In this document: in pieces, positions 6,441 to 46,662 of the stretch
Position numbering within the stretch: position 1 is the first letter of the stretch
Layout: each line of letters opens with the position of its first letter
NCBI GenBank assembly: GCA_038064855.1
Contig: JBBTSE010000002.1
Coordinates: 72,815 to 136,814 of the forward strand
Source: Patescibacteria group bacterium
Lineage (GTDB): Bacteria; Patescibacteriota; Minisyncoccia; Ryanbacterales; GWA2-47-10b
Length of the DNA stretch: 64,000 nt
Reading direction: 5' to 3'
Notes under the pieces: model-generated
Told to the model about the DNA's origin: nothing
Seen by the model: the letters and a program-made list of their open reading frames with translations, nothing else
Database searches by the model: none
Made by a program: the position numbers and the translations under genes

Positions 6441-6798
6441 GAGGTGGTATACTGACAAAAGCATGAATATCTATATAAGGATTATTTTGTGGGGGCTACT
6501 TGTTTTTTGGCTGGTCGGTTCTGCTGTCCTATTGCCTAAATTTTATTGCGGAGTTGGGAACGCAGGCAAAGCTGGGTCAGCTGTTTTTAATCAGAGTGAT
6601 CCAAATTTTCGGCAACACAGTAAGGTGATTTTTGATGACTGCTCGTATCCAGCAGTTTTCAAAATCCTTCTTAAGAGGCGCTTGATTCTAGACTATATGC
6701 TCGGTGTTATTGGGTTACCATTAATTCTCATCTCACTTTTTTATGGCGGTCAATTTCTTTATAAGAAAATCTTTCGAAAACAATATGACCACAAATGA
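6439..6798 (+). CDS. Hypothetical small membrane protein
   Basis: Hydrophobic helices in the translation (IILWGLLVFWLVGSAVLL; VIGLPLILISLFYGG) and no recognisable family. Confidence 0.45.
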   Translation: MRWYTDKSMNIYIRIILWGLLVFWLVGSAVLLPKFYCGVGNAGKAGSAVFNQSDPNFRQHSKVIFDDCSYPAVFKILLKRRLILDYMLGVIGLPLILISLFYGGQFLYKKIFRKQYDHK

Positions 6799-7322: not shown

Positions 7323-7697
7323 CTAGTGGGGGAGAGCGTAGGCTCGCACGGTGTCGGTGAGCTCGTTGGGCACGCCCGATGACTTCGGTACGAACGCCAT
7401 AGCTCCCAGCTTCACCGCCGCCTCGGCGATGCCAGTCATCGTCTCGCGTGAGTAGATGATGATGGGCATCTGGGGGTGTGTCTCGCGCATGCCCGAGACG
7501 AGCTGCATGCCGGGCCGAAACCCTCTGCCCGCCACAATCTCGATGACCATGATGTCAGGACGCTCTTCGTTTGCGATGACTCGCGCCTCCGCAAAGCTGT
7601 CTGTCTCGAGCAGTACTGCGTCCGGTTCGGCGTCTTTGAGCTTCTTGCGTACGCGTGCCCGATCCTCGGCACTTTCGTCCACGAGTAGTATCTTCAT
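7323..7697 (-). CDS. Single-domain response regulator (REC/CheY-like), GC-rich orphan
   Basis: MKILLVDESAEDR...DIMVIEIVAGRGFRPGMQL...MPIIIYS is a receiver-domain pattern with D and K positions. GGAGG lies 12 nt upstream of the MKIL ATG. GC is clearly higher than the surroundings. Confidence 0.7.
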   Translation of the reverse strand: MKILLVDESAEDRARVRKKLKDAEPDAVLLETDSFAEARVIANEERPDIMVIEIVAGRGFRPGMQLVSGMRETHPQMPIIIYSRETMTGIAEAAVKLGAMAFVPKSSGVPNELTDTVRAYALPH

Positions 7698-7865
7698 GGG
7701 TTGGTACATTCCTCCTTCTAATAATAAAAAATACCCCAAAACCTTTAAAGAGTCAATGTTTTGATGGGTAGACTCGTCCCACTCTGGACAGCTCTTTTTC
7801 GTTGTGCTACAAAGGGGTCATGTTTCTCTGGTGATTTCCCCCCAGATAGTGACGGTAAGGCCTAG

Positions 7866-7888
7866 CCCCGCCGTGCGGGGTGTTTTAT
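7866..7888 (+). promoter_or_regulatory. Terminator-like hairpin in the 5' leader of the rplC operon (possible attenuator)
   Basis: CCCCGC-cgt-GCGGGG followed by TGTTTTATT, ~35 nt upstream of the rplC ATG. Confidence 0.35.
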
Positions 7889-7921
7889 TACCTGATGGGA
7901 ACAGCTCCATAAGCGGGGTAT

Positions 7922-8464
7922 ATGAAAAAATTCATCCTCGGTAAAAAGCTCGAAATGAGCCAAATATTCAAAGACGACGGCACAGTAATCCCTGTGACCG
8001 TCATTCAAGCTGGCCCCGTCGAGATCTCTCAAGTAAAGGGCAAGGAAAAAGACGGTTATGAGGCAGTACAAGTCCTTTTCGGCAAAACTCGCAAAGAATT
8101 TCGTACGGAAGATTCATACGAAAAAGGCGGCAAAATCGATGTTTCGGTTTTTGCGGAAGGGGATTTTGTAAAAGTATCAGGCACCATGAAGGGTCGTGGT
8201 TTTCAAGGCGTGGTCAAGCGCCACGGCTTCAAGGGTGCTCCTAAGTCCCACGGTACCAAGCACGCCCACCGCGAGCCGGGTTCAATCGGTGCAGTATGGC
8301 CTCAGCGCGTACTCAAGGGTACTCGTATGGGTGGTCGTATGGGTGGTACTCGTATTACCGTAGAAAATCTGATGGTCGCCAAAGTCGATGCTGAGAAAAA
8401 CTTACTGTATGTACGCGGCGCGGTTCCGGGCGCTCGTGGTACACTCTTGGAAATTTCTGCATAA
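7922..8464 (+). CDS. rplC: 50S ribosomal protein L3
   Basis: GTMKGRGFQGVVKRHGF...GGTRITVENLMVAKVD is an L3 signature. Confidence 0.95.
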   Translation: MKKFILGKKLEMSQIFKDDGTVIPVTVIQAGPVEISQVKGKEKDGYEAVQVLFGKTRKEFRTEDSYEKGGKIDVSVFAEGDFVKVSGTMKGRGFQGVVKRHGFKGAPKSHGTKHAHREPGSIGAVWPQRVLKGTRMGGRMGGTRITVENLMVAKVDAEKNLLYVRGAVPGARGTLLEISA

Positions 8465-35594: not shown

Positions 35595-36692
35595 ATGTTC
35601 CGTACGCTCAAAGCGATCGGACTGCTCGCGGGCATGATTATCGGTGCTGGTATGTTTGCCCTACCGTATACCATTGTGCGTGCGGGTATTGGTTGGTCGC
35701 TTGTTCATGCCAGTATTGTCCTGGTGCTGGTTACGCTCACGCACGCGCTGTACGCAGGTGTTATTTTAAAAGACCGCAGACACGCGCGTCTCCCTGGGTA
35801 CGCGCGCGAGTATCTGGGCGAGAGTGGTTTTTGGATAGCGCTCATTTCACGGTTAGGGGCGTATTGGGGGTTTTTACTCGCGTACGGTATTATCATTGGC
35901 GATTTTTTTGCGCACATCATTCCGTTGTCTGAGACAACGCTCGCTATCACTTTTTTTATTCTTGTTTCGCCACTTATTCTTTTTCGCCTCTCGCGCATCG
36001 GTACGATCAATTTTGTGCTTACGCTTCCCGAAGTGTTTTTGCCACTCATTTTCTTTTTCATATGGTGGCCGCAGTTTGATTTTTCAGCAGTTTCATTTGG
36101 AGGTCATGGCGATTGGTTCCTACCCTACGGCATTTTTCTTTTCGCACTTTCTGGTGCATCAGTGATACCAGAGGTTATTGACACGCTCGGCACCTCGGCG
36201 CATAAAAAAATATTTCCCGTGATCATCGCTGGTAGTGTGATTGCGATATTAATTTATGCCGCGTTTAGTTTGACGATTATCGGGCTTGCGGGTGGCGTGC
36301 CTTCGCATGATTCACTCTCAGTCCTTGCCGTGAGCATTGGTCACCGTGCGTACATCGTAGGGACATTGCTCGGGCTTCTTGCTGTCATCACTTCATACAT
36401 AGCACTCGGACTTGAGTTGAAGTATACCTTTGAATATGATCTCGGGCGTTCGTCGTATGTTGCGTGGGCGCTCACCGCATTTATGCCTCTCGCGATATAT
36501 CTTGCGGGTGTCAGAAGTTTCATTTTACTCATCGATATTATTGGTGCAGTCGGAGTTGGCGTTGAGGGAGTTATTATTGCGCTTCTCGCGCGTCGCGTGC
36601 TTGGTACCCAATGGATTATCGCAGGCGGTATTGCACTCGCACTTGCGGCCGGTGCCGCCTTTGAATTGATACGCACTACAGGAGTGCTATGA
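35595..36692 (+). CDS. Amino-acid permease-like transporter (about 11 TM, HAAAP-like)
   Basis: GAGMFALPY N-terminal motif and multi-TM architecture. Confidence 0.6.
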   Translation: MFRTLKAIGLLAGMIIGAGMFALPYTIVRAGIGWSLVHASIVLVLVTLTHALYAGVILKDRRHARLPGYAREYLGESGFWIALISRLGAYWGFLLAYGIIIGDFFAHIIPLSETTLAITFFILVSPLILFRLSRIGTINFVLTLPEVFLPLIFFFIWWPQFDFSAVSFGGHGDWFLPYGIFLFALSGASVIPEVIDTLGTSAHKKIFPVIIAGSVIAILIYAAFSLTIIGLAGGVPSHDSLSVLAVSIGHRAYIVGTLLGLLAVITSYIALGLELKYTFEYDLGRSSYVAWALTAFMPLAIYLAGVRSFILLIDIIGAVGVGVEGVIIALLARRVLGTQWIIAGGIALALAAGAAFELIRTTGVL

Positions 36693-37315
36693 CCAAAAAA
36701 GAATTGCTCGCGGACCTCGAGCAAGAAATGATAAAAGATACTACACTCCCGCTACAGGAAGCTCGCTTGGTTTTTGGTGAGGGCAACGAGGACGCCGAGG
36801 TTTTATTTATCGGCGAGGCACCCGGTTTTCACGAAGATCGGCTCGGCCGCCCGTTTGTTGGCAGGGGAGGCGAGCTTCTTACTGAATGTATCGGGAGCAT
36901 CGGTTGGTACCGAGAACAGGTATATATTACAAACATCGTAAAACGCAGACCACCAGAAAATAGAGATCCATTATCTGAAGAGATCGAGGCATACAAACCA
37001 TATCTCGCGCGTCAGATTGAAATTATAGGCCCGCGCATTATTGTACCGCTCGGCAGGTTTGCTATGAATTATTTTTTGCCTGACGCGAAAATTTCTCGTG
37101 ACCAAGGAAAAATATTTGTTGTCGGCAAGTACAAGGTGATGCCCATGTTTCATCCGGCGGCGGCGCTGCGCGGTACGACCGTGCTCAATCAATTTAAAGA
37201 AACATTTACAAAACTTCCTATGATCGTATCGGGCGAGGTTGAGGTAATAAAACCAGAAGTTACTCAAACAAAAAAATCTTCCGAAGAAGAATCGTCTCAA
37301 GTCTCTCTTTTCTAG
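36689..37315 (+). CDS. Uracil-DNA glycosylase family 4
   Basis: LFIGEAPG...GRPFVG...HPAAALR motifs of family 4 UDG. Confidence 0.85.
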   Translation: MTKKELLADLEQEMIKDTTLPLQEARLVFGEGNEDAEVLFIGEAPGFHEDRLGRPFVGRGGELLTECIGSIGWYREQVYITNIVKRRPPENRDPLSEEIEAYKPYLARQIEIIGPRIIVPLGRFAMNYFLPDAKISRDQGKIFVVGKYKVMPMFHPAAALRGTTVLNQFKETFTKLPMIVSGEVEVIKPEVTQTKKSSEEESSQVSLF

Positions 37316-37420
37316 CCAGCTCAAAAAAGCCTTAAAAATAGAGGGAAAGGGGGGACATTGACATATTAGTTTTTATATAGTATAATGCAGAAAGATCTTT
37401 AAATACTTACTTGCGAACTC

Positions 37421-37468
37421 TGCCACAGCAGAAAGCGCCTTATTCTTAGGACCTTTTCTGCTGTGGCA
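37421..37468 (+). promoter_or_regulatory. Long stem-loop (14-bp stem) upstream of the DGR target gene
   Basis: TGCCACAGCAGAAA...18-nt loop...TTTCTGCTGTGGCA. Confidence 0.4.
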
Positions 37469-37548
37469 AAGCCGACAGGCGGTAATGCCAGCCCGTGTTG
37501 GGCAACAGCGTTAATCTAACTGGCGAAAACCGAAAAGGAGAAAACGCC

Positions 37549-38169
37549 ATGGACCGTCAGACTGGAAAGCTTATCTCACGTATCGCGGAGAATCTCCCCG
37601 ACATGTCGTCGGACATCATGCAGGGCTGGATTGAGAACCCGCGGGCACTTCAGAAGTTCCTCGCGAGCCTCAGCCCACCTGAGACATCACCCGAGTTCCA
37701 AACCTGGAAGACCATCAAGCTCGGCACGGGCCTTAAGACCGCGGACGATTTCCGTCGAGTACTCCGTGACAGCTGCCGCATCGGCGACGGGGCTTCGGAC
37801 ATTCTCGGCAAGCCCGCCTTCACGGTGTGCGACACCGAGATGGAGCTCGATCTCGTTCGCCCCTCGGTGGCCGAGCTCGGCTTCAAGGATGGCGCCACCT
37901 TCAAGGACATCTGCGAGCGGGGTCTCGAGTACGGACTCAAGCTCTGTCCCGCAGAAGTCGGCCCCCAGCTCCGTCTCCAGTACAGGGACCAGCCGTTGGG
38001 TGAGTGGCTCATCATCGCCATGAAGGCCATCCGCTACTCGGCCGGCGACCTCAGCGTGTTCAGCGTGGAACGCTATGACAACGGGCTGTGGCTCAGCGGC
38101 TACGATGGCAGCCCTGATTACTTTTGGTTCAGCCTCGACCGTTTCGTGTTCGTTCGTCCTCGCAAGTAG
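37549..38169 (+). CDS. DGR target (variable) protein; the C-terminal ~44 codons are the variable repeat
   Basis: GC-rich ORF with AAGGAG 9 nt upstream of ATG 37549 and no signal peptide. The last 134 bp pair with the TR, and the VR ends 2 codons before the stop. Confidence 0.8.
   Translation: MDRQTGKLISRIAENLPDMSSDIMQGWIENPRALQKFLASLSPPETSPEFQTWKTIKLGTGLKTADDFRRVLRDSCRIGDGASDILGKPAFTVCDTEMELDLVRPSVAELGFKDGATFKDICERGLEYGLKLCPAEVGPQLRLQYRDQPLGEWLIIAMKAIRYSAGDLSVFSVERYDNGLWLSGYDGSPDYFWFSLDRFVFVRPRK
38031..38163 (+). repeat. DGR variable repeat (VR)
   Basis: Aligns over ~133 bp to 38532-38664. All but one of ~18 mismatches fall where the other copy has A, so this copy is the variable one. Confidence 0.85.
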
Positions 38170-38256
38170 TCCTCGGCGCTGGGAGCCTTGGTCTCTGACC
38201 TTGGAGCCTTGGTCCTTGGAGAAAATCATCAACGTTGGGAGATAACGCTAAGCTCC

Positions 38257-38296
38257 AGCCCCATATCTATCGTAGATATGGGGCTCTATTTTTATG
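38257..38296 (+). terminator. Rho-independent terminator / hairpin downstream of VR
   Basis: AGCCCCATATCTA-tcg-TAGATATGGGGCT followed by CTATTTTTAT. Confidence 0.65.
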
Positions 38297-38531
38297 CTAA
38301 AATAATTCTTGGCAGTAGGTGAATATGCGAGAGACCAAGGTTTCTTGCTACCGAACCCAGTATCCTTGCGCCGAGTGTATCCACGACCATGGTTTTGGGT
38401 AGGGTGGTGCATGAGAACTCTCAAAAAATGAAGATACTTGGTATTGCGTGCTAGGGCATTGAAGATGTCGAATACGATACAGCCCCGAGAGTATTCAAGG
38501 GGCAGTGGCACAGATGGCGCGCTTTACGTCT

Positions 38532-38664
38532 CCGCAACTCGGCCGGCAACCTCAACGTGTTCAGCGTGGAACACAATGACAACGGGCTGTGGCTCAACAG
38601 CAACAATGGCAACCCTGACAACTTTTGGAACAGCAACAACCGTTTCGTGTTCGTTCGTCCTCGC
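38532..38664 (+). repeat. DGR template repeat (TR)
   Basis: Non-coding copy with a stop upstream and no start. It carries AAC at every VR-variable codon position and a 24-nt adenine-free 3' segment identical to the VR. Confidence 0.85.
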
Positions 38665-38672
38665 AACTCTCT

Positions 38673-39059
38673 TCATTTCTCCCTCGCCTTTGGTAGGGAG
38701 TTTTGCTTGCCCTGAGGTTGCTCAAGAGATTTTGTAAGCTGCCCGTTCCATCCTCCGAGCATCTTGCCGATTTCATCTATTTTTACCGAAAGCGCGGTGT
38801 ATTTTTTGTTATCAAGAGATTTCGTTTCCCACAAAATCATAAGCAGTATCTTGAGCGTATCTGTTTTGCGTATCGCAAGACGAACATAGGGTCTTTTTTC
38901 CTCTCGTGCAAGGAAGCTTGCACTTGCAATCGCTTCGATACTTTCTACAAAGAGATTATCGATCCTTTGGCCAAGAGAATGTCGGTGAAGTTTTGGTAAC
39001 GCTTGGTAGTATTGATACCACAGCAAATATGTATTTTTTAGCTTCTGTAAAATTGGCAA
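38673..39059 (-). CDS. avd: Avd-like accessory variability determinant (four-helix-bundle / 23S rRNA IVS protein family)
   Basis: LPKLHRHSLGQRID...EAIA...EKRPYVRLAIRKTDTLKILLMILWE...KIDEIGKMLGGW matches the four-helix-bundle family and bAvd-like C-terminal (E)IG(K/R)xLGxW. TTG start. Opposite strand to TR and RT. Confidence 0.7.
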   Translation of the reverse strand: MPILQKLKNTYLLWYQYYQALPKLHRHSLGQRIDNLFVESIEAIASASFLAREEKRPYVRLAIRKTDTLKILLMILWETKSLDNKKYTALSVKIDEIGKMLGGWNGQLTKSLEQPQGKQNSLPKAREK

Positions 39060-39096
39060 AACCCGTTGGGGGGGGGCTTACCTGGTTAGTATTTTT

Positions 39097-40101
39097 ATGA
39101 AAAGGCAGTTCACTCATACCTATAATGATATCATCTCTCTCGAAAATCTTCTTGAGGCGTGGAGGGAGTTTATCAATGGAAAACGCGGGCGCATTGATGT
39201 CCAGTTGTTTGAGCGCGATTTAATGAAAAACATTATCGCGCTTCATATAGATCTTGTAGGTAAGACTTACAAACATTCATCTTACTACGCATTTAACATC
39301 TCAGATCCCAAACCAAGAAATATACACAAAGCGAGTGTCCGAGATAGATTACTGCATCATGCGTTATACAGAAAACTATACCCATTTTTCGATAGGACTT
39401 TTATAGACGATTCATATTCGTGCAGACTGGGTAAGGGAACGCACAAAGCGATGAATAGATTCCGCTCTTTTGCGCAAAAAACATCAAAAAATTATACCAA
39501 AACAGTTTGGGTTCTGAAGTGTGATATACGGAAGTTCTTTGCCTCAATAGATCAAGAGGCTCTCATTAAGGTTATCGAGAGTTATGTGCCAGACAAAGAT
39601 ATTATTTTGCTTATCTCCGAAGTTGTTGGTAGCTTTCACTCAACGCAAACTGGTGTCGGGCTGCCTCTTGGTAATCTCACAAGCCAGCTTCTCGTAAATA
39701 TTTATATGAACGAGTTTGACCAGTTTATGAAACATAAGCTTAAAGCAAAATATTATATTCGCTACGCCGATGATTTTGTTATTTTTTCTCAAGACAAAAA
39801 ATTGCTTGAAAGTATGATGTTACAAATTCAAAGTTTTCTTTGGGAGCGGCTACGATTGCAACTCCACCCCGATAAGGTATCGATACGCACGGTGGCCTCC
39901 GGCGTTGATTTTCTTGGGTGGGTGTATTTTCCAGATCATCGAGTGTTACGAACGGTTACAAAAAAGAGGATGTTTCGCAACATTGGTATAAGCCAAGGCA
40001 AAAAAGAAACGGTACAGTCGTATCTAGGAACGATACGTCATGGCAATAGCCAGAAGCTTAAAGGCAAAATTGAAGGTTTGATAAATAAAATTTCAGTATA
40101 A
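39097..40101 (+). CDS. DGR reverse transcriptase
   Basis: RT motifs: LLEAWREF N-terminus, GLPLGNLTSQLLVNIYMNEFD (LGxxxSQ, DGR hallmark) and YIRYADDFVIF (YxDD). Confidence 0.88.
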   Translation: MKRQFTHTYNDIISLENLLEAWREFINGKRGRIDVQLFERDLMKNIIALHIDLVGKTYKHSSYYAFNISDPKPRNIHKASVRDRLLHHALYRKLYPFFDRTFIDDSYSCRLGKGTHKAMNRFRSFAQKTSKNYTKTVWVLKCDIRKFFASIDQEALIKVIESYVPDKDIILLISEVVGSFHSTQTGVGLPLGNLTSQLLVNIYMNEFDQFMKHKLKAKYYIRYADDFVIFSQDKKLLESMMLQIQSFLWERLRLQLHPDKVSIRTVASGVDFLGWVYFPDHRVLRTVTKKRMFRNIGISQGKKETVQSYLGTIRHGNSQKLKGKIEGLINKISV

Positions 40102-40368
40102 AAAAGTTTGGGCCTGCACGCGTGATGCGGGCAGGCCATTGTGCGAGAGAGAATTGTGGAAGGTGCGGTGAGCAGGGGAACTGCAGGGAAGGGGGAGGTG
40201 TGTAGGTGACGCATGGGCGTCAGTGCCGGTGGTGGCCATTACGCTGACCTCGCTCTTCTCTGAATTTCGATGCTCTTAGGATCTGCCTTAAGTATAGAGT
40301 GTAAAAAGTTTTTATGATACCGTTCTCTGTGGAAAACTTTTTCCTGCGCTATACTATCCATATACGCT

Positions 40369-42096
40369 ATGAACAATAAGGATATTTCAGATACACTGTT
40401 TGCTATCGCCGAGTATTTTACGATATTTAATGAGCCGTTTAAGGCGCGCGCGTATGAAAAAGTGGCAGAGACGCTTTCAAGCTTCGAGAGTGATATTCGC
40501 GAACTTTATAAAAATGGCGGATGCAAAGCGCTCGAAGAAATCCCAGGTATCGGCAAGGGAATTGCACAAACAATTGAAGAATATATCAAGACTAGTCGTG
40601 TGCGCGAGCTCGACGCTATGCGCAAAAAAATGCCGGTCAATATGGAAGAGCTGCGCAGTATTGAAGGTATCGGCCCCAAGGCAATAAAAACACTTTATGA
40701 GAAATTAAAAGTAAAAGATGTAGCAAGCTTAAAGAAGGCAGCGCTCGCAGGCAAGATTAGTAAGCTTGAAAAGTTTGGCCTCAAGTCTGAACAAAAGATT
40801 TTAAAAGGCATCGAGTTTTTTGAATCATCACATGGGAGGTTTTTGTTGGGCGAGGCGTTGCCTATCGCACGACGTATCGCGGGTGACTTACGCAAAGTGA
40901 AGGGCGTATCGCGCGTGGAGATTGCGGGATCGATCAGGCGATGGCGCGAGACATCAGGTGATATTGATATCTTGGTAGAGGCGACAAATGCTGACGCGGT
41001 GATGAGCATGTTTGTATCGCGCGAAGATATTGCGCATGTCATCGCACACGGCGAGACAAAAAGTTCAGCGCGCATAAAGGACGGTATTGATGTCGATGTG
41101 CGTGTACTACCCAAAAAATCTTTTGGTGCGGCACTTATTTATTTTACGGGTTCGAAAGATCATAATGTTTTGCTTAGGTCCTTGGCGCTGAAGAAAAAAT
41201 TGAAACTCAACGAATACGGTTTATATCGTGGTACGAAAATAATCGCGGGAGCTACAGAAGAGGAAGTATACAAAGCGCTCGGTGTCTTTATGCCACCACC
41301 CGAACTACGCGAAGGAAAAGATGAGCTCGAAAAAAAATACGGCGGGGTTGTAGATTTTACAGATTTGTGCGGAGATTTTCAAACACAGACTGATTGGACC
41401 GATGGTGCCGATTCTTTAGAGGCGATGGTGCGAGAAGCAAAACGATTGGGTCATGAATACATCGCGATCACGGATCACACCAAGAGTCTCGCGATGACGG
41501 GCGGATCTGATGAAAAAAAATTGCGTAAACAAATACGAGAGATTGGCACGCTCAATAAAAAAATTTCCGGCATCACGATATTGAGTGGTGCAGAGGTAAA
41601 TATTATGCGCGATGGCACGCTTGATATTTCTGACGAAGTTTTATCAGAGCTTGATATCGTGGGTGCTGCTGTTCACTCGCATTTTAATTTGTCAGCAGAG
41701 GAGCAGACCGAGCGCATCATGCGTGCGATGTCCAGCCCGCATGTCGATATTCTTTTTCATCCGACGGGACGCGTTCTCAAAAAAAGAGATCCATATGCAA
41801 TTGATATTGATCGCATCATCGCGCATGCAGTCTCAACTGGCACGGTACTCGAGATTGATGCACATCCGTGGCGACTTGATTTGAAAGATGATCATATTAA
41901 ACGCGCGGTAGATGCGGGCGCGATGTTTAGTATTGATACGGACGCACACTCTCTTGCAGAACTCTCATATTTGGAGTATGGTATAGGACAAGCGCGACGC
42001 GCGGGTCTTCCCAAAAATCGTGTTCTCAATACGCTTGCATTGCCAGCGTTACAAAAATTTTTGGCGACCCCAAAACAAAAGCGTCATCTCTTATGA
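40369..42096 (+). CDS. DNA polymerase X family with C-terminal PHP domain
   Basis: N-terminal Pol-beta-like HhH/fingers (IPGIGKGIAQTIEE) and C-terminal PHP (ITDHT...). 575 aa. Confidence 0.88.
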   Translation: MNNKDISDTLFAIAEYFTIFNEPFKARAYEKVAETLSSFESDIRELYKNGGCKALEEIPGIGKGIAQTIEEYIKTSRVRELDAMRKKMPVNMEELRSIEGIGPKAIKTLYEKLKVKDVASLKKAALAGKISKLEKFGLKSEQKILKGIEFFESSHGRFLLGEALPIARRIAGDLRKVKGVSRVEIAGSIRRWRETSGDIDILVEATNADAVMSMFVSREDIAHVIAHGETKSSARIKDGIDVDVRVLPKKSFGAALIYFTGSKDHNVLLRSLALKKKLKLNEYGLYRGTKIIAGATEEEVYKALGVFMPPPELREGKDELEKKYGGVVDFTDLCGDFQTQTDWTDGADSLEAMVREAKRLGHEYIAITDHTKSLAMTGGSDEKKLRKQIREIGTLNKKISGITILSGAEVNIMRDGTLDISDEVLSELDIVGAAVHSHFNLSAEEQTERIMRAMSSPHVDILFHPTGRVLKKRDPYAIDIDRIIAHAVSTGTVLEIDAHPWRLDLKDDHIKRAVDAGAMFSIDTDAHSLAELSYLEYGIGQARRAGLPKNRVLNTLALPALQKFLATPKQKRHLL

Positions 42097-42569
42097 CTGA
42101 AAAAAAAATAATAGTAGAGCGATCTGCGGGAGCTATCATATTCCGGCGGCAGGGTGGGCGCGTTTGGTATGTGCTTCTTCAGTATGCGACGCGCAATCAT
42201 TGGACCTTTCCGCGCGGGCGACTCGAAGAAGGTGAGCGACCCATTGATGCGGCGCGCCGAGAGATCGAAGAGGAGACAGGCATCTCGCGTGTAAAATTTA
42301 TCCCCGGATACAAAGAAACGATTCACTTTCACTACCAGTGGCCACCCAAAACCGAAGGGGCCGAGCAACGGCTCAAGTTTATCACCTTCTATTTGGGTGA
42401 AGTATTTGGCCGCACTATCAAAATATCGGAAGAGCACAAGAGCTTTGTGTGGGCGCCGTTTGAAAAAGCTATGAAAATCATCAAACATAAGAATAGCAGG
42501 GAGCTGCTCAAGAAAGCTCATATGAAAATTATTCGCATGGACGTAAAAAAGCCACCTTTGGTATCATAA
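42093..42569 (+). CDS. NUDIX hydrolase
   Basis: Nudix box GRLEEGERPIDAARREIEEETGI. Confidence 0.85.
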   Translation: MTEKKIIVERSAGAIIFRRQGGRVWYVLLQYATRNHWTFPRGRLEEGERPIDAARREIEEETGISRVKFIPGYKETIHFHYQWPPKTEGAEQRLKFITFYLGEVFGRTIKISEEHKSFVWAPFEKAMKIIKHKNSRELLKKAHMKIIRMDVKKPPLVS

Positions 42570-46265: not shown

Positions 46266-46307
46266 GTCAAACAAAAAGCCTGATCTACATCAGGCTTTTT
46301 ATTTTTT
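46266..46307 (-). terminator. Rho-independent terminator downstream of ssrA (bidirectional hairpin)
   Basis: AAAAAGCCTGAT-ctac-ATCAGGCTTTTT flanked by A/T tracts on both sides. Confidence 0.65.
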
Positions 46308-46309
46308 TG

Positions 46310-46662
46310 TGGAAGTGGGCGGAATTGAACCGCCGTCCGAAAGTTCTTCTCAATAAAAATTTATACAGGCGTACTTAGGACGAACCCAAGAGTTTGCTCG
46401 ATTAGTTTCGCGCGCGTGTATCGAGCATGATGCGCACTAGCTGAGGATTATAACACCGGCATTCCACGCACTCAGCGGTTGCGGACCGATGCTCTGGCGC
46501 ATAGTGGCCAGAGAAACGCCTACGGCTTAGGCAAAAGCCATTGCCGGTTGGCGGTTAAATAAGTTTGCACTTATTGGCGTGTGGCATTTTTGGAAGAGGT
46601 GACCACACCTGCTCTTGCCTGATTTTCAAAGAGTCGAGACCCCGTCGAGGCCTGTCACTCCC
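46310..46662 (-). ncRNA. ssrA: tmRNA (ssrA), about 353 nt
   Basis: The 3' end is tRNA-like: T-stem-loop GGCGG-UUCAAUU-CCGCC plus acceptor CACUUCC-A. The 5' GGGAGUG pairs with it. An internal Ala-initiated tag-like reading frame ends ...AMAFA-TAA. It lies immediately downstream of smpB. Confidence 0.8.

Follow-up and report, generated by a model that had tools for sequence, protein, structure and literature searches.

A chromosomal Patescibacteria-type diversity-generating retroelement with a predicted structured RNA around its template repeat

The window analyzed here is a stretch of 64,000 nucleotides (nt) of DNA from a Patescibacteria group bacterium (contig JBBTSE010000002.1, positions 72,815 to 136,814 of the forward strand), in which a preliminary description made from the sequence had recognized a diversity-generating retroelement (DGR). 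As summarized in Table 1, the cassette comprises a target gene ending in a variable repeat (VR), a non-coding template repeat (TR), the gene for the accessory variability determinant (avd), and a reverse transcriptase (RT) gene. The open reading frames (ORFs) of the 206-aa target and of the RT, the latter with its LGNLTSQ and YADD motifs, were found exactly where they had been placed. The VR/TR repeat was also present, at a length of 136 nt rather than the approximately 133 nt given previously and with the TR at 38531-38666 instead of 38532-38664, and the Avd ORF, which was matched by DGR Avd profiles, turned out to lie on the minus strand, a point unmentioned in the preliminary description. 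The assignment as a complete DGR was borne out by the adenine-specific mismatches of the repeat, the match of the RT to the PDB chain 8ub7, and the match of Avd to the bAvd family. We thus regard the locus with high confidence as an intact chromosomal DGR of the Patescibacteria type, arranged as target - TR - reversed avd - RT, for which the RNA model developed below offers the best explanation.

Table 1. Coordinates of the DGR cassette, its predicted non-coding elements and its neighbours in the window
Feature	Coordinates	Strand	Remarks
UDG (uracil-DNA glycosylase) gene	36689-37315		upstream of cassette
Target gene promoter	37358-37386	+	perfect TTGACA-17-TATAAT, 12/12 in promoter scan
Target 5' leader hairpin, long	37418-37471	+	~54 nt; conserved; from leader fold and nhmmer
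Target (variable protein) gene	37549-38169	+	206 aa
VR	38030-38165	+	last 45 target codons; 136-nt repeat, 16 A-to-N differences from TR
CTTGG array, four motifs	38187-38219	+	starts 38187, 38200, 38208, 38215; after VR and stop
Weak 4-bp hairpin GGTCtctGACC	38189-38199		within CTTGG array
Target gene intrinsic terminator	38257-38285	+	13-bp stem, then T-rich tail; terminator scan
Extended -10-like box (TGCTAAAAT), putative DGR RNA promoter	38294-38302	+	conserved TGnTAnAAT; T and A invariant in 50 sequences
Structured 5' domain of DGR RNA (predicted)	38311-38527	+	~220 nt, six helices; conservation and covariation
P1	38311-12/38357-58 and 38318-20/38350-52
P2	38327-35/38340-48		tetraloop
P3	38366-72/38406-12 and 38378-87/38392-401
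A-rich single-stranded linker	38424-38440
P4	38441-52/38516-27		12 bp; ten covarying pairs with ~20 double changes apiece
P5	38456-59/38465-68
P6	38482-90/38495-503
Near-invariant single strands of 5' domain			CGAAUACGAUACA, AGUGGCACAGAU
Long-range helix, 5' strand (AAAUGAAGA)	38426-38434	+	pairs with 38670-38678; near-invariant UACUUGG, then P4
TR	38531-38666	+	last 25 nt (38640-38664) without A
Long-range helix, 3' strand (UCUUCAUUU)	38670-38678	+	starts 3 nt past TR/VR homology end
avd (accessory variability determinant)	38673-39059	-	128 aa; convergent with TR RNA, divergent from RT
Stem-loop and U tract	38679-38700 and 38701-38709	+	antisense to last ~11 avd codons
Poly-G tract (G9)	39068-39076	+	in 37-nt region between divergent avd and RT starts
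DGR RT gene	39097-40101	+	334 aa; LGNLTSQ and YADD
PolX gene, with PHP domain	40369-42096		downstream of cassette
Nudix gene	42093-42569		downstream of cassette
tmRNA gene (RF00023)	46307-46662	-	88.5 bits; 6 kb downstream of cassette

A direct-repeat search over 36500-41000 returned the TR/VR pair as the longest repeat, with the two copies aligning ungapped at 88% identity and an offset of 501 nt. Among the 17 mismatches, 16 fell at TR adenines, so that 16 of 36 adenines were altered against 1 of 100 other nucleotides (one-sided Fisher test, p = 4e-10), and the sole non-A difference (C38619 in the TR, T38118 in the VR) was a synonymous one (GAC/GAT). Read in the frame of the target ORF, AAC accounted for 12 of the 45 TR codons, and the 25-nt A-free 3' end of the TR was GC-rich. 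In nearly all related loci, which are described below, the homology between TR and VR ended with ...CGCAA, after which the TR reads C-T and the VR reads G-T; owing to this systematic difference (...CGCAACT against ...CGCAAGT), the end of the VR encodes Lys, with the stop codon following. No further TR-like copy or second target was detected on either strand of the 64-kb window, even when the A positions were ignored. Second copies were observed in two of the related loci, namely a TR/VR-like pair with A-biased mismatches (6646-6788 / 7428-7570) approximately 2.5 kb downstream of the RT in L018, and a second copy of the target-leader element (7847-7950) approximately 3 kb downstream of the RT in L005, which suggests that some genomes carry additional targets or another cassette.

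Variation among homologous targets was assessed in four clusters, each represented by several contigs, whose members were at least 90% identical to one another and 57-63% identical to the window protein. The variable columns were concentrated in the last 50 residues, with 18 there and none among the 160 elsewhere in cluster P0013, and with 23 against 2, 22 against 8 and 22 against 13 in clusters P0049, P0073 and P0012, respectively. The varying positions were those encoded by AAC-type codons, a pattern that is, as far as such alignments can tell, the footprint to be expected from active homing in sister cassettes. One member of cluster P0013, P0142, carried an Asn-rich VR (NLNVFNVKRNDDGKQWLNANNGHPDNFWNGNNRW) as expected from the translated TR, and this could be either a product of homing without mutation or a chimera of TR and VR created in assembly.

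The RT matched RVT_1 at 1.7e-25 and phrog_1423 at 5e-108. Among all PDB chains, its best match was 8ub7_A (E = 2e-45), a 328-aa 'Reverse transcriptase' present in nine entries, which we take to be the RT of the Bordetella phage DGR in view of the IGSLTSQ and YMDD in the aligned sequence; the next RT matches comprised a group II enzyme (5e-21) and a 'retron-type' enzyme (9e-21), ranging to 1e-19. The phage RT matches, at most 40% identical, included the known DGR carriers ANMV-1 and Bordetella phages. On the question posed in the preliminary description, whether the enzyme would group with group II intron and retron RTs or with those of DGRs, the comparison thus came down on the DGR side (2e-45 for 8ub7 against 5e-21 for group II), the clade placement being one by nearest neighbours, not by phylogeny. 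Avd matched PF22296 bAvd with 47.7 bits (gathering cutoff, 40) and phrog_3206 'Avd protein of DGR' at 1.6e-17. Both proteins are members of DGR families. We consider it extremely improbable that the RT is one of a group II intron, a retron or a defence system (DRT/Abi) and that the repeat is an unrelated duplication. The best NCBIfam match was indeed a group II intron RT model, with weaker ones to Drt3a and retron models, and some phage homologues are annotated as 'retron-type' or 'group II intron' RTs; these scores, however, were all far below the cutoffs (150 of 300, 79 of 200 and 64 of 235 bits, respectively), and the DGR RT outranked every other solved relative by 24 orders of magnitude. 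Moreover, LGNLTSQ is present, an Avd gene is adjacent, Rfam returned no intron or other RNA family in the region, and the adenine specificity of the repeat given above likewise speaks against such an assignment.

DGRs of the candidate phyla radiation (CPR) have been recognized as a class since 2017, and thousands of them are catalogued; to our knowledge this class is known only from surveys, no CPR DGR having been reconstituted. A scan of one genome per GTDB species yielded 324 RT relatives. The best 80 of them were 63-72% identical to the window RT and came nearly all from Patescibacteria metagenome-assembled genomes (MAGs), and the comparison extended to about 200 related loci in all. The avd gene was reversed and directly upstream of the RT in 78 of the 80 loci, and 64 yielded a TR/VR pair whose mismatches were A-biased; in all but one of these 64, the end of the TR adjoined the 3' end of avd and the VR lay 380-590 nt upstream. 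The targets were nearly always 185-240 aa long with a C-terminal VR, and relatives of the window target family were encoded in 12 of 80 loci by tblastn and in 19 of 61 by a family hidden Markov model (HMM).

These properties were in good agreement with published surveys. According to the available excerpts of Wu et al. 2018 (PMC5758913), a TR-(avd)-RT order in which avd is reversed constitutes architecture B3, which accounts for 90% of CPR DGRs, and those of Roux et al. 2021 (PMC8144416) describe a cellular DGR RT clade ('DGR clade 2') restricted to Patescibacteria. Gene order, strands and host group of the window cassette were the same as described there, as were the small target with its C-terminal VR and the cellular rather than viral setting, so that no difference at the gene level from the B3 and clade 2 DGRs was apparent from these excerpts. 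The cassette is a typical member of the catalogued CPR-type B3 class, and the earlier claim that the cassette and its architecture look uncharacterised does not hold, because the layout is the published B3 and the close RT relatives are nearly all from Patescibacteria MAGs. The excerpts of the two papers make no mention of the non-coding parts, namely the 5' RNA domain with its putative promoter and terminator, its long-range helix with the TR flank, the hairpin in the target leader, the CTTNG repeats and the poly-G tract. As a side observation, CPR-type cassette contigs carried the labels Nitrospira, Gammaproteobacteria, Bdellovibrionales or Negativicutes in public MAGs (L027, L030, L039, L067 and P0136); L027 equaled L026, from a CPR MAG labelled Saccharibacteria, in the RNA, the TR flank and the intergenic region while their VRs differed, and these labels probably reflect binning contamination, not transfer.

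The region between the target stop and the TR measures 360 nt. An nhmmer search recovered 38281-38532 in 72 of the 80 loci, always on the plus strand and always ending at the TR start, and a consensus structure was computed with RNAalifold from 50 sequences. From this conservation, the TR is seen to lie within what is predicted to be a non-coding unit of about 400 nt that consists of a -10 box, a six-helix domain, the TR, a pairing flank, and a stem-loop with a U tract. The extended -10-like box directly follows the target gene terminator, and P4 ends 3 nt before the TR. In the consensus structure, 44 of the 50 predicted pairs showed compensatory double changes. Alignment cells of the 5' domain were paired in 96.7% of cases, as compared with 74.3% after column shuffling and 38-54% when the strands were slid by 1-3 columns; the corresponding numbers of double-change cells were 596 against 160 and the covariation scores 0.747 against 0.286, and none of 500 shuffles reached the observed values. 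The slid control flatters the structure to some extent, as the prediction came from this very alignment; the compensatory changes are still numerous in every helix.

The A-rich linker in front of P4 appears to be engaged with the 3' flank of the TR in a long-range helix, which was paired in 82.9% of cases (69.7% after shuffling, 44-57% when slid). Double changes occupied 41 of its cells against 15, and its covariation score was 0.346 as compared with 0.141, values again reached by none of 500 shuffles. This helix is nested, forms no pseudoknot, and encloses the P4 domain together with the TR. The single-sequence minimum free energy (MFE) structure of 38309-38710 recovered it as well, in addition to P2, P3, P6 and the terminal hairpin. 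A column-pair scan for extra pseudoknots in the 5' domain yielded only the consensus helices and a 4-bp extension of P3, and both sides of a possible GAUAC/GUAUC pairing (38434-38 with 38360-64) were almost invariant, so that no covariation signal could arise. The flank behind the TR was conserved in nearly all loci as CUCUUCAUUUCUCUCC - loop - GGAGAG - UUUUGUUUU, with a CUCUCC/GGAGAG stem and a covarying inner stem. In a few loci, a wholly different hairpin sequence followed the TR, yet the hairpin and the U tract persisted, which argues for an intrinsic terminator. For 207 of 278 DGRs, those of CPR among them, Handa et al. (bioRxiv 10.1101/2023.10.23.563531) inferred a putative Avd-binding stem-loop a short way downstream of the TR, and the stem-loop at 38679-38700 fits this description too; the element 38679-38709 is thus a putative terminator of the DGR RNA and/or a putative Avd-binding stem-loop.

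A coding function of the VR-TR spacer was considered and rejected. A small protein gene, such as the minus-strand ORF 38248-38511, was not upheld by 73 homologous regions, in which the longest ORF varied in strand and length (30-80 aa), and the 5' domain contained no conserved ORF on either strand. A 21-nt motif, GAGAGTATTCRANGGGYRGTG, composed of the 3' strand of P6 and its neighbours, gave at least 119 exact matches in metagenome contigs; among the 119 matches listed, all lay inside a full 5' domain, and where at least 1 kb followed downstream, the RT was on the same strand in 61 of 73 and avd on the opposite strand in 64 of 73. The same motif had zero exact matches in 2.9 million viral contigs (IMG/VR). 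This result, together with phage RTs that are at most 40% identical, led us to reject a viral origin. Rfam 15 returned only the tmRNA over the whole window at gathering thresholds, and only chance miRNA-like matches on the leader hairpin over 37300-39200 at E ≤ 10. Neither the structured RNA nor the CTTNG array or the poly-G tract was found in Rfam 15 or in the searched literature, the survey of Paul et al. 2017 lying outside that search.

Downstream of the VR, CTTNG motifs were found to be enriched on the plus strand, at 3.66 per 90 nt in 61 loci as compared with 0.33 on the other strand and 0.52 in shuffles, i.e., approximately 7-fold over shuffles and 11-fold over the opposite strand. Their spacing was mostly 7-8 nt, with a peak 35-45 nt after the VR, and nearly every related cassette had such an array. 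Perfect hairpins of at least 5 bp followed the VR in 72% of the loci and in 23% of shuffles; according to the available excerpts of Wu et al. 2018 (PMC5758913), no more than 34% of DGRs have inverted repeats downstream of the VR. A CTTNG array is missing from the TR flank, and the array is therefore a candidate mark of the recipient. Pairing of the CUUGG motif of the RNA with these repeats was also considered, but loci with UCGG in the RNA still use CTTTG and no covariation was seen, and the resemblance was kept as a coincidence.

Apart from the G9 tract between avd and the RT gene, the 64-kb window contains no G/C run that reaches 8 nt. Of 144 related loci, 112 had six or more consecutive Gs ahead of the RT start. 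These tracts measured 6-13 nt, in most cases 8-11, and usually ended 15-19 nt before that start; in the remaining 1.09 Mb, G-runs of at least 8 occurred only 14 times. Loci devoid of the G tract had other simple repeats in its place, (GATT)6 and (GGTT)3. In 5 of 10 locus pairs with 250-nt flanks at least 97% identical, the tract differed in length, and in 3 of these 5 the flanks were 100% identical. These observations suggest slipped-strand switching of RT and/or Avd expression, while the length differences could also be homopolymer assembly errors, or the tract could be an RNA element. The searched papers contained none that links DGRs with homopolymer tracts. Phase variation by simple repeats is well known, for instance by (TA)n between hifA and hifB of Haemophilus influenzae and by poly-G in Neisseria promoters. 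The present tract resembles such divergent-promoter systems in that a repeat within a very short intergenic region differs in length between otherwise identical sequences; it differs in being known from sequence alone, with assembly error or an RNA element possible.

In the ribonucleoprotein (RNP) of the Bordetella phage DGR, nucleotides 53-56 of the spacer RNA (Sp) pair with TR 118-121, and A56 primes at TR G117; two nt further on, Sp 59-70 pairs with a segment just 5' of the TR as the 'cPRT stop', followed by a stem-loop, single-stranded RNA and an RT-binding stem-loop, with the TR looping out between the duplexes (bioRxiv 10.1101/2023.10.23.563531). It is possible, although our doubts outweigh our confidence, that DGRs of Patescibacteria employ an undescribed, circularly permuted and retron-like RNA of about 400 nt that is self-contained, having a 5' domain with RT/Avd-binding stem-loops, P4 as a stop and a primer linker pairing with the TR 3' flank, along with CTTNG repeats that mark the recipient and a slippage-prone poly-G tract that switches the mutator on in part of the population. 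In the proposed mechanism, the RT-Avd complex would bind the ~400-nt RNA, and the long-range helix would set the 3' end of the TR beside a priming nucleotide at or just after A38434, a position proposed because of its analogy to Sp A56 of the Bordetella phage. cDNA would then be copied across the TR with random incorporation opposite adenines, and P4 would halt the RT. The cDNA would replace the VR, whose identity as the recipient would be marked by the A-free 3' end ...CGCAA(G/C)T and by the CTTNG repeat/hairpin region downstream, while slippage of the poly-G tract that separates the divergent avd and RT genes may switch their expression. The model addresses the hitherto unclear priming of cDNA synthesis in cassettes whose avd is inverted and whose TR and RT gene have no spacer between them; with the primer/stop strand placed 5' of the TR, cis-priming would be explicable despite the convergent avd and the missing Sp.

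The DGR of Bordetella phage BPP-1 (mtd - avd - TR - Sp - brt; PMC6182149) shares with the window cassette the adenine-specific TR-to-VR transfer, a homologous RT (approximately 35-40% identical) and Avd, and a C-type-lectin-fold (CLec) target with a C-terminal VR. The inferred geometry of the RNA is also shared, in that a duplex with the TR 3' end is joined to a second duplex ending a few nt 5' of the TR, through a linker of 2 nt there and of 6 nt here (UACUUG), and in both RNAs stem-loops and single-stranded stretches follow the duplexes, two stem-loops being enclosed by P4 here. In contrast to BPP-1, the avd of the window is on the opposite strand and downstream of the TR, no 140-nt Sp lies between the TR and the RT gene, only about 40 nt following the TR, and the primer-like and stop-like strand and the stem-loops are located 5' of the TR, which amounts to a circular permutation. 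The window RNA is apparently a transcription unit of its own, ending about 40 nt after the TR, and the VR is followed by CTTNG repeats rather than by a single GC-rich cruciform. Retron msr-msd RNAs have the same connectivity, with a primer-bearing strand and protein-binding stem-loops 5' of the template, and their a1/a2 closing helix is comparable to 38426-34 with 38670-78, as both join the primer-adjacent region to the 3' flank of the template. Unlike retrons, the window cassette has an RT outside the retron clade, an accessory Avd, and a template that is a protein-coding repeat with a chromosomal recipient, and neither multicopy single-stranded DNA (msDNA) nor an effector is implied for it. 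The model thereby suggests that DGRs and retrons share RNA connectivity.

Rather unlikely, but deserving serious weight, is the explanation that the DGR is real and its 5' region merely a promoter plus a stabilising or regulatory leader, with the elements for RT/Avd binding and priming located elsewhere, e.g., in the stem-loop 3' of the TR. Putative Avd-binding stem-loops follow the TR in 207 of 278 DGRs, as cited above, and such a stem-loop is present here; in addition, the priming and stop roles are assigned by analogy only, and the MFE z-score of the whole RNA is insignificant. However, a domain of 220 nt with six covarying helices and near-invariant single strands exceeds what a leader needs, and it was present in every related cassette with enough sequence examined, whatever the target family. 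Furthermore, covariation links the linker to the 3' flank of the TR, and P4 adjoins the 5' end of the TR, exactly at the places of the primer and stop duplexes in the phage RNA, and the roughly 40 nt from the TR to the U tract are too short for a phage-like Sp of 140 nt.

Several points weigh against the RNA model and against the reading of the locus as a functioning DGR. The transcription start, termination, priming nucleotide, stop function and protein binding are all inferred by analogy. The whole-RNA MFE was no better than that of shuffled sequences (z = -0.42), and the case for the RNA structure is hence one of covariation alone; the long-range helix was just 83% paired in the alignment, and the post-VR hairpin of the window has just 4 perfect pairs. 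Some of the non-coding elements may already have been described by Paul et al. 2017. As for Avd, the scores to NF033474 DivGenRetAVD (66.4 bits, 2.3e-18; cutoff, 80) and to PF05635 (17.9 bits; cutoff, 33.8) stayed below the cutoffs, and there was no sequence-level PDB match at E ≤ 1. The comparison with Avd HMMs proposed in the preliminary description came out in favour of a DGR, with PF22296 bAvd above its gathering score and PF05635 below its cutoff. Finally, the exact target sequence forms a single-member cluster whose next relative is 70% identical, and in view of this and of the missing population sample, current activity at the window locus is unsupported.

The last point bears on the notion that the DGR is a fossil, i.e., once active and no longer diversifying its target in this population, which we judge improbable. 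The protein collection holds a single sequence of this target, one TR/VR difference is a non-adenine one, and the hairpin near the VR is weak. On the other hand, all ORFs are intact with their catalytic motifs, the window copy, which is the top nhmmer match, retains every conserved helix and flank of the RNA, the 16 A-site differences show past homing, and sister cassettes vary within clusters, mostly at the VR. The value of the cassette resides in the conserved non-coding anatomy seen by comparison, which provides a testable scheme for priming, stopping, targeting and perhaps regulation in a large uncultivated class of DGRs. The covariation-supported RNA model names the exact nucleotides to mutate, namely the helix 38426-34/38670-78, P4 and the UACUUGG linker. 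For target recognition the CTTNG array, and for switching hypermutation on and off the poly-G tract, offers itself as a candidate open to testing.

The target family was correctly described at the outset as functionally uncharacterised. The protein had no Pfam, NCBIfam or PHROG match at E ≤ 0.01, FGE-sulfatase PF03781 and DUF1566 included, and its sequence showed no visible signal peptide or membrane segment, in agreement with Roux et al. 2021 (PMC8144416), who remark that recognisable domains, transmembrane ones included, are missing from CPR targets. It had 1,518 homologues at E ≤ 1e-3, all about 205-215 aa long, the named ones being from the CPR lineages Nealsonbacteria, Staskawiczbacteria and Paceibacterota, and an identical entry is the hypothetical protein AAB417_01075 of a 'Patescibacteria group bacterium' MAG. 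In the family alignment, a conserved body precedes a C-terminal part in which invariant S, F, V, W, L, G, P, W and F alternate with hypervariable positions. According to an AlphaFold2 model built with this alignment (pLDDT 91.8), the target is composed of a three-helix N-terminal part (first ~45 residues) and a VR-carrying domain of the CLec fold. The solved DGR variable proteins (Mtd 1yu0, TvpA 2y3c, archaeal AvpA and Thermus TaqVP) and the Bd2740 tip domain (8oks) share this fold, with variable residues in the C-terminal strands and loops, and the ...FVFVRPRK tail of the window target is comparable to the GFR-type ends of other VRs; the window protein differs from the solved ones in its size of only 206 aa, its three-helix N-terminal part, and the absence of an FGE-sulfatase or DUF1566 match. 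A family of at least 1,500 naturally diversified, small CLec proteins with no visible export signal bears on the question of whether CPR DGR targets act intracellularly.

Upstream of the target gene, the TTGACA and -10 box were found at the same place in approximately 45 related loci. The leader 37394-37551 folded with an MFE of -53.4 kcal/mol (z = -3.45), and nhmmer showed leader and promoter to be kept in front of targets from different families (approximately 45 loci). Compensatory changes were visible in its stem, e.g., GCCACAGCAG/CTGCTGTGGC versus GTCATAGCGA/TCGCTATGAC, and this near-palindrome could be an RNA element or a DNA operator.

The housekeeping neighbourhood noted earlier is real, as the genes for UDG, PolX and Nudix flank the cassette together with those for a SLOG-family protein and an amino-acid permease, but it carries no signal: UDG and/or PolX occurred near a DGR in only 4 of the 80 loci, one of them a close relative, and a functional link to the repair genes was therefore rejected. 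Locus L001 of a related MAG (JBBTQY010000015) has the same flanks at approximately 78% DNA identity (UDG and PolX 90% and 87% identical at the protein level, respectively) and holds a DGR at the same UDG-PolX site with a different target protein of 216 aa. Compared over 37400-39350 (L001, 2300-4250), the part from about 37400 to 39050, which covers leader, target, RNA, TR and avd, was unalignable (41-56% identity), whereas identity was approximately 60% over 39050-39350 and approximately 72% over the rest of the RT. This pattern indicates that the left part of the cassette was probably exchanged while the site was kept, i.e., module exchange at a fixed site. The RT N-terminus, which contacts Avd and RNA in the phage RNP (Handa et al., bioRxiv 10.1101/2023.10.23.563531), is included in the exchanged block, which is no more than suggestive given a modest contrast at the protein level (61% versus 75%). 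A sharp breakpoint within the RT was rejected for the same reason and because the DNA profile supports just a divergent block from ~37400 to ~39350.

Between the RT and PolX genes, 40105-40300 folded beyond shuffles on both strands (z = -4.48 on the plus and -3.38 on the minus strand), with a hairpin resembling a terminator at 40111-40137 and, behind it, a long imperfect hairpin rich in G; the stretch had no Rfam match. This fold was conserved only in the syntenic L001, and we thus do not count it as part of the DGR cassette. The base composition of the cassettes was also split: mean GC contents over 55 related loci were 54% for targets upstream of the VR, 65% for the VR, 42% for avd, 40% for the RT and 45% for the flanks, with the target above the flanks in 51 of 55 loci and the RT below them in 52 of 55, and in the window the target had a GC content of 61% as compared with 39% for the RT.

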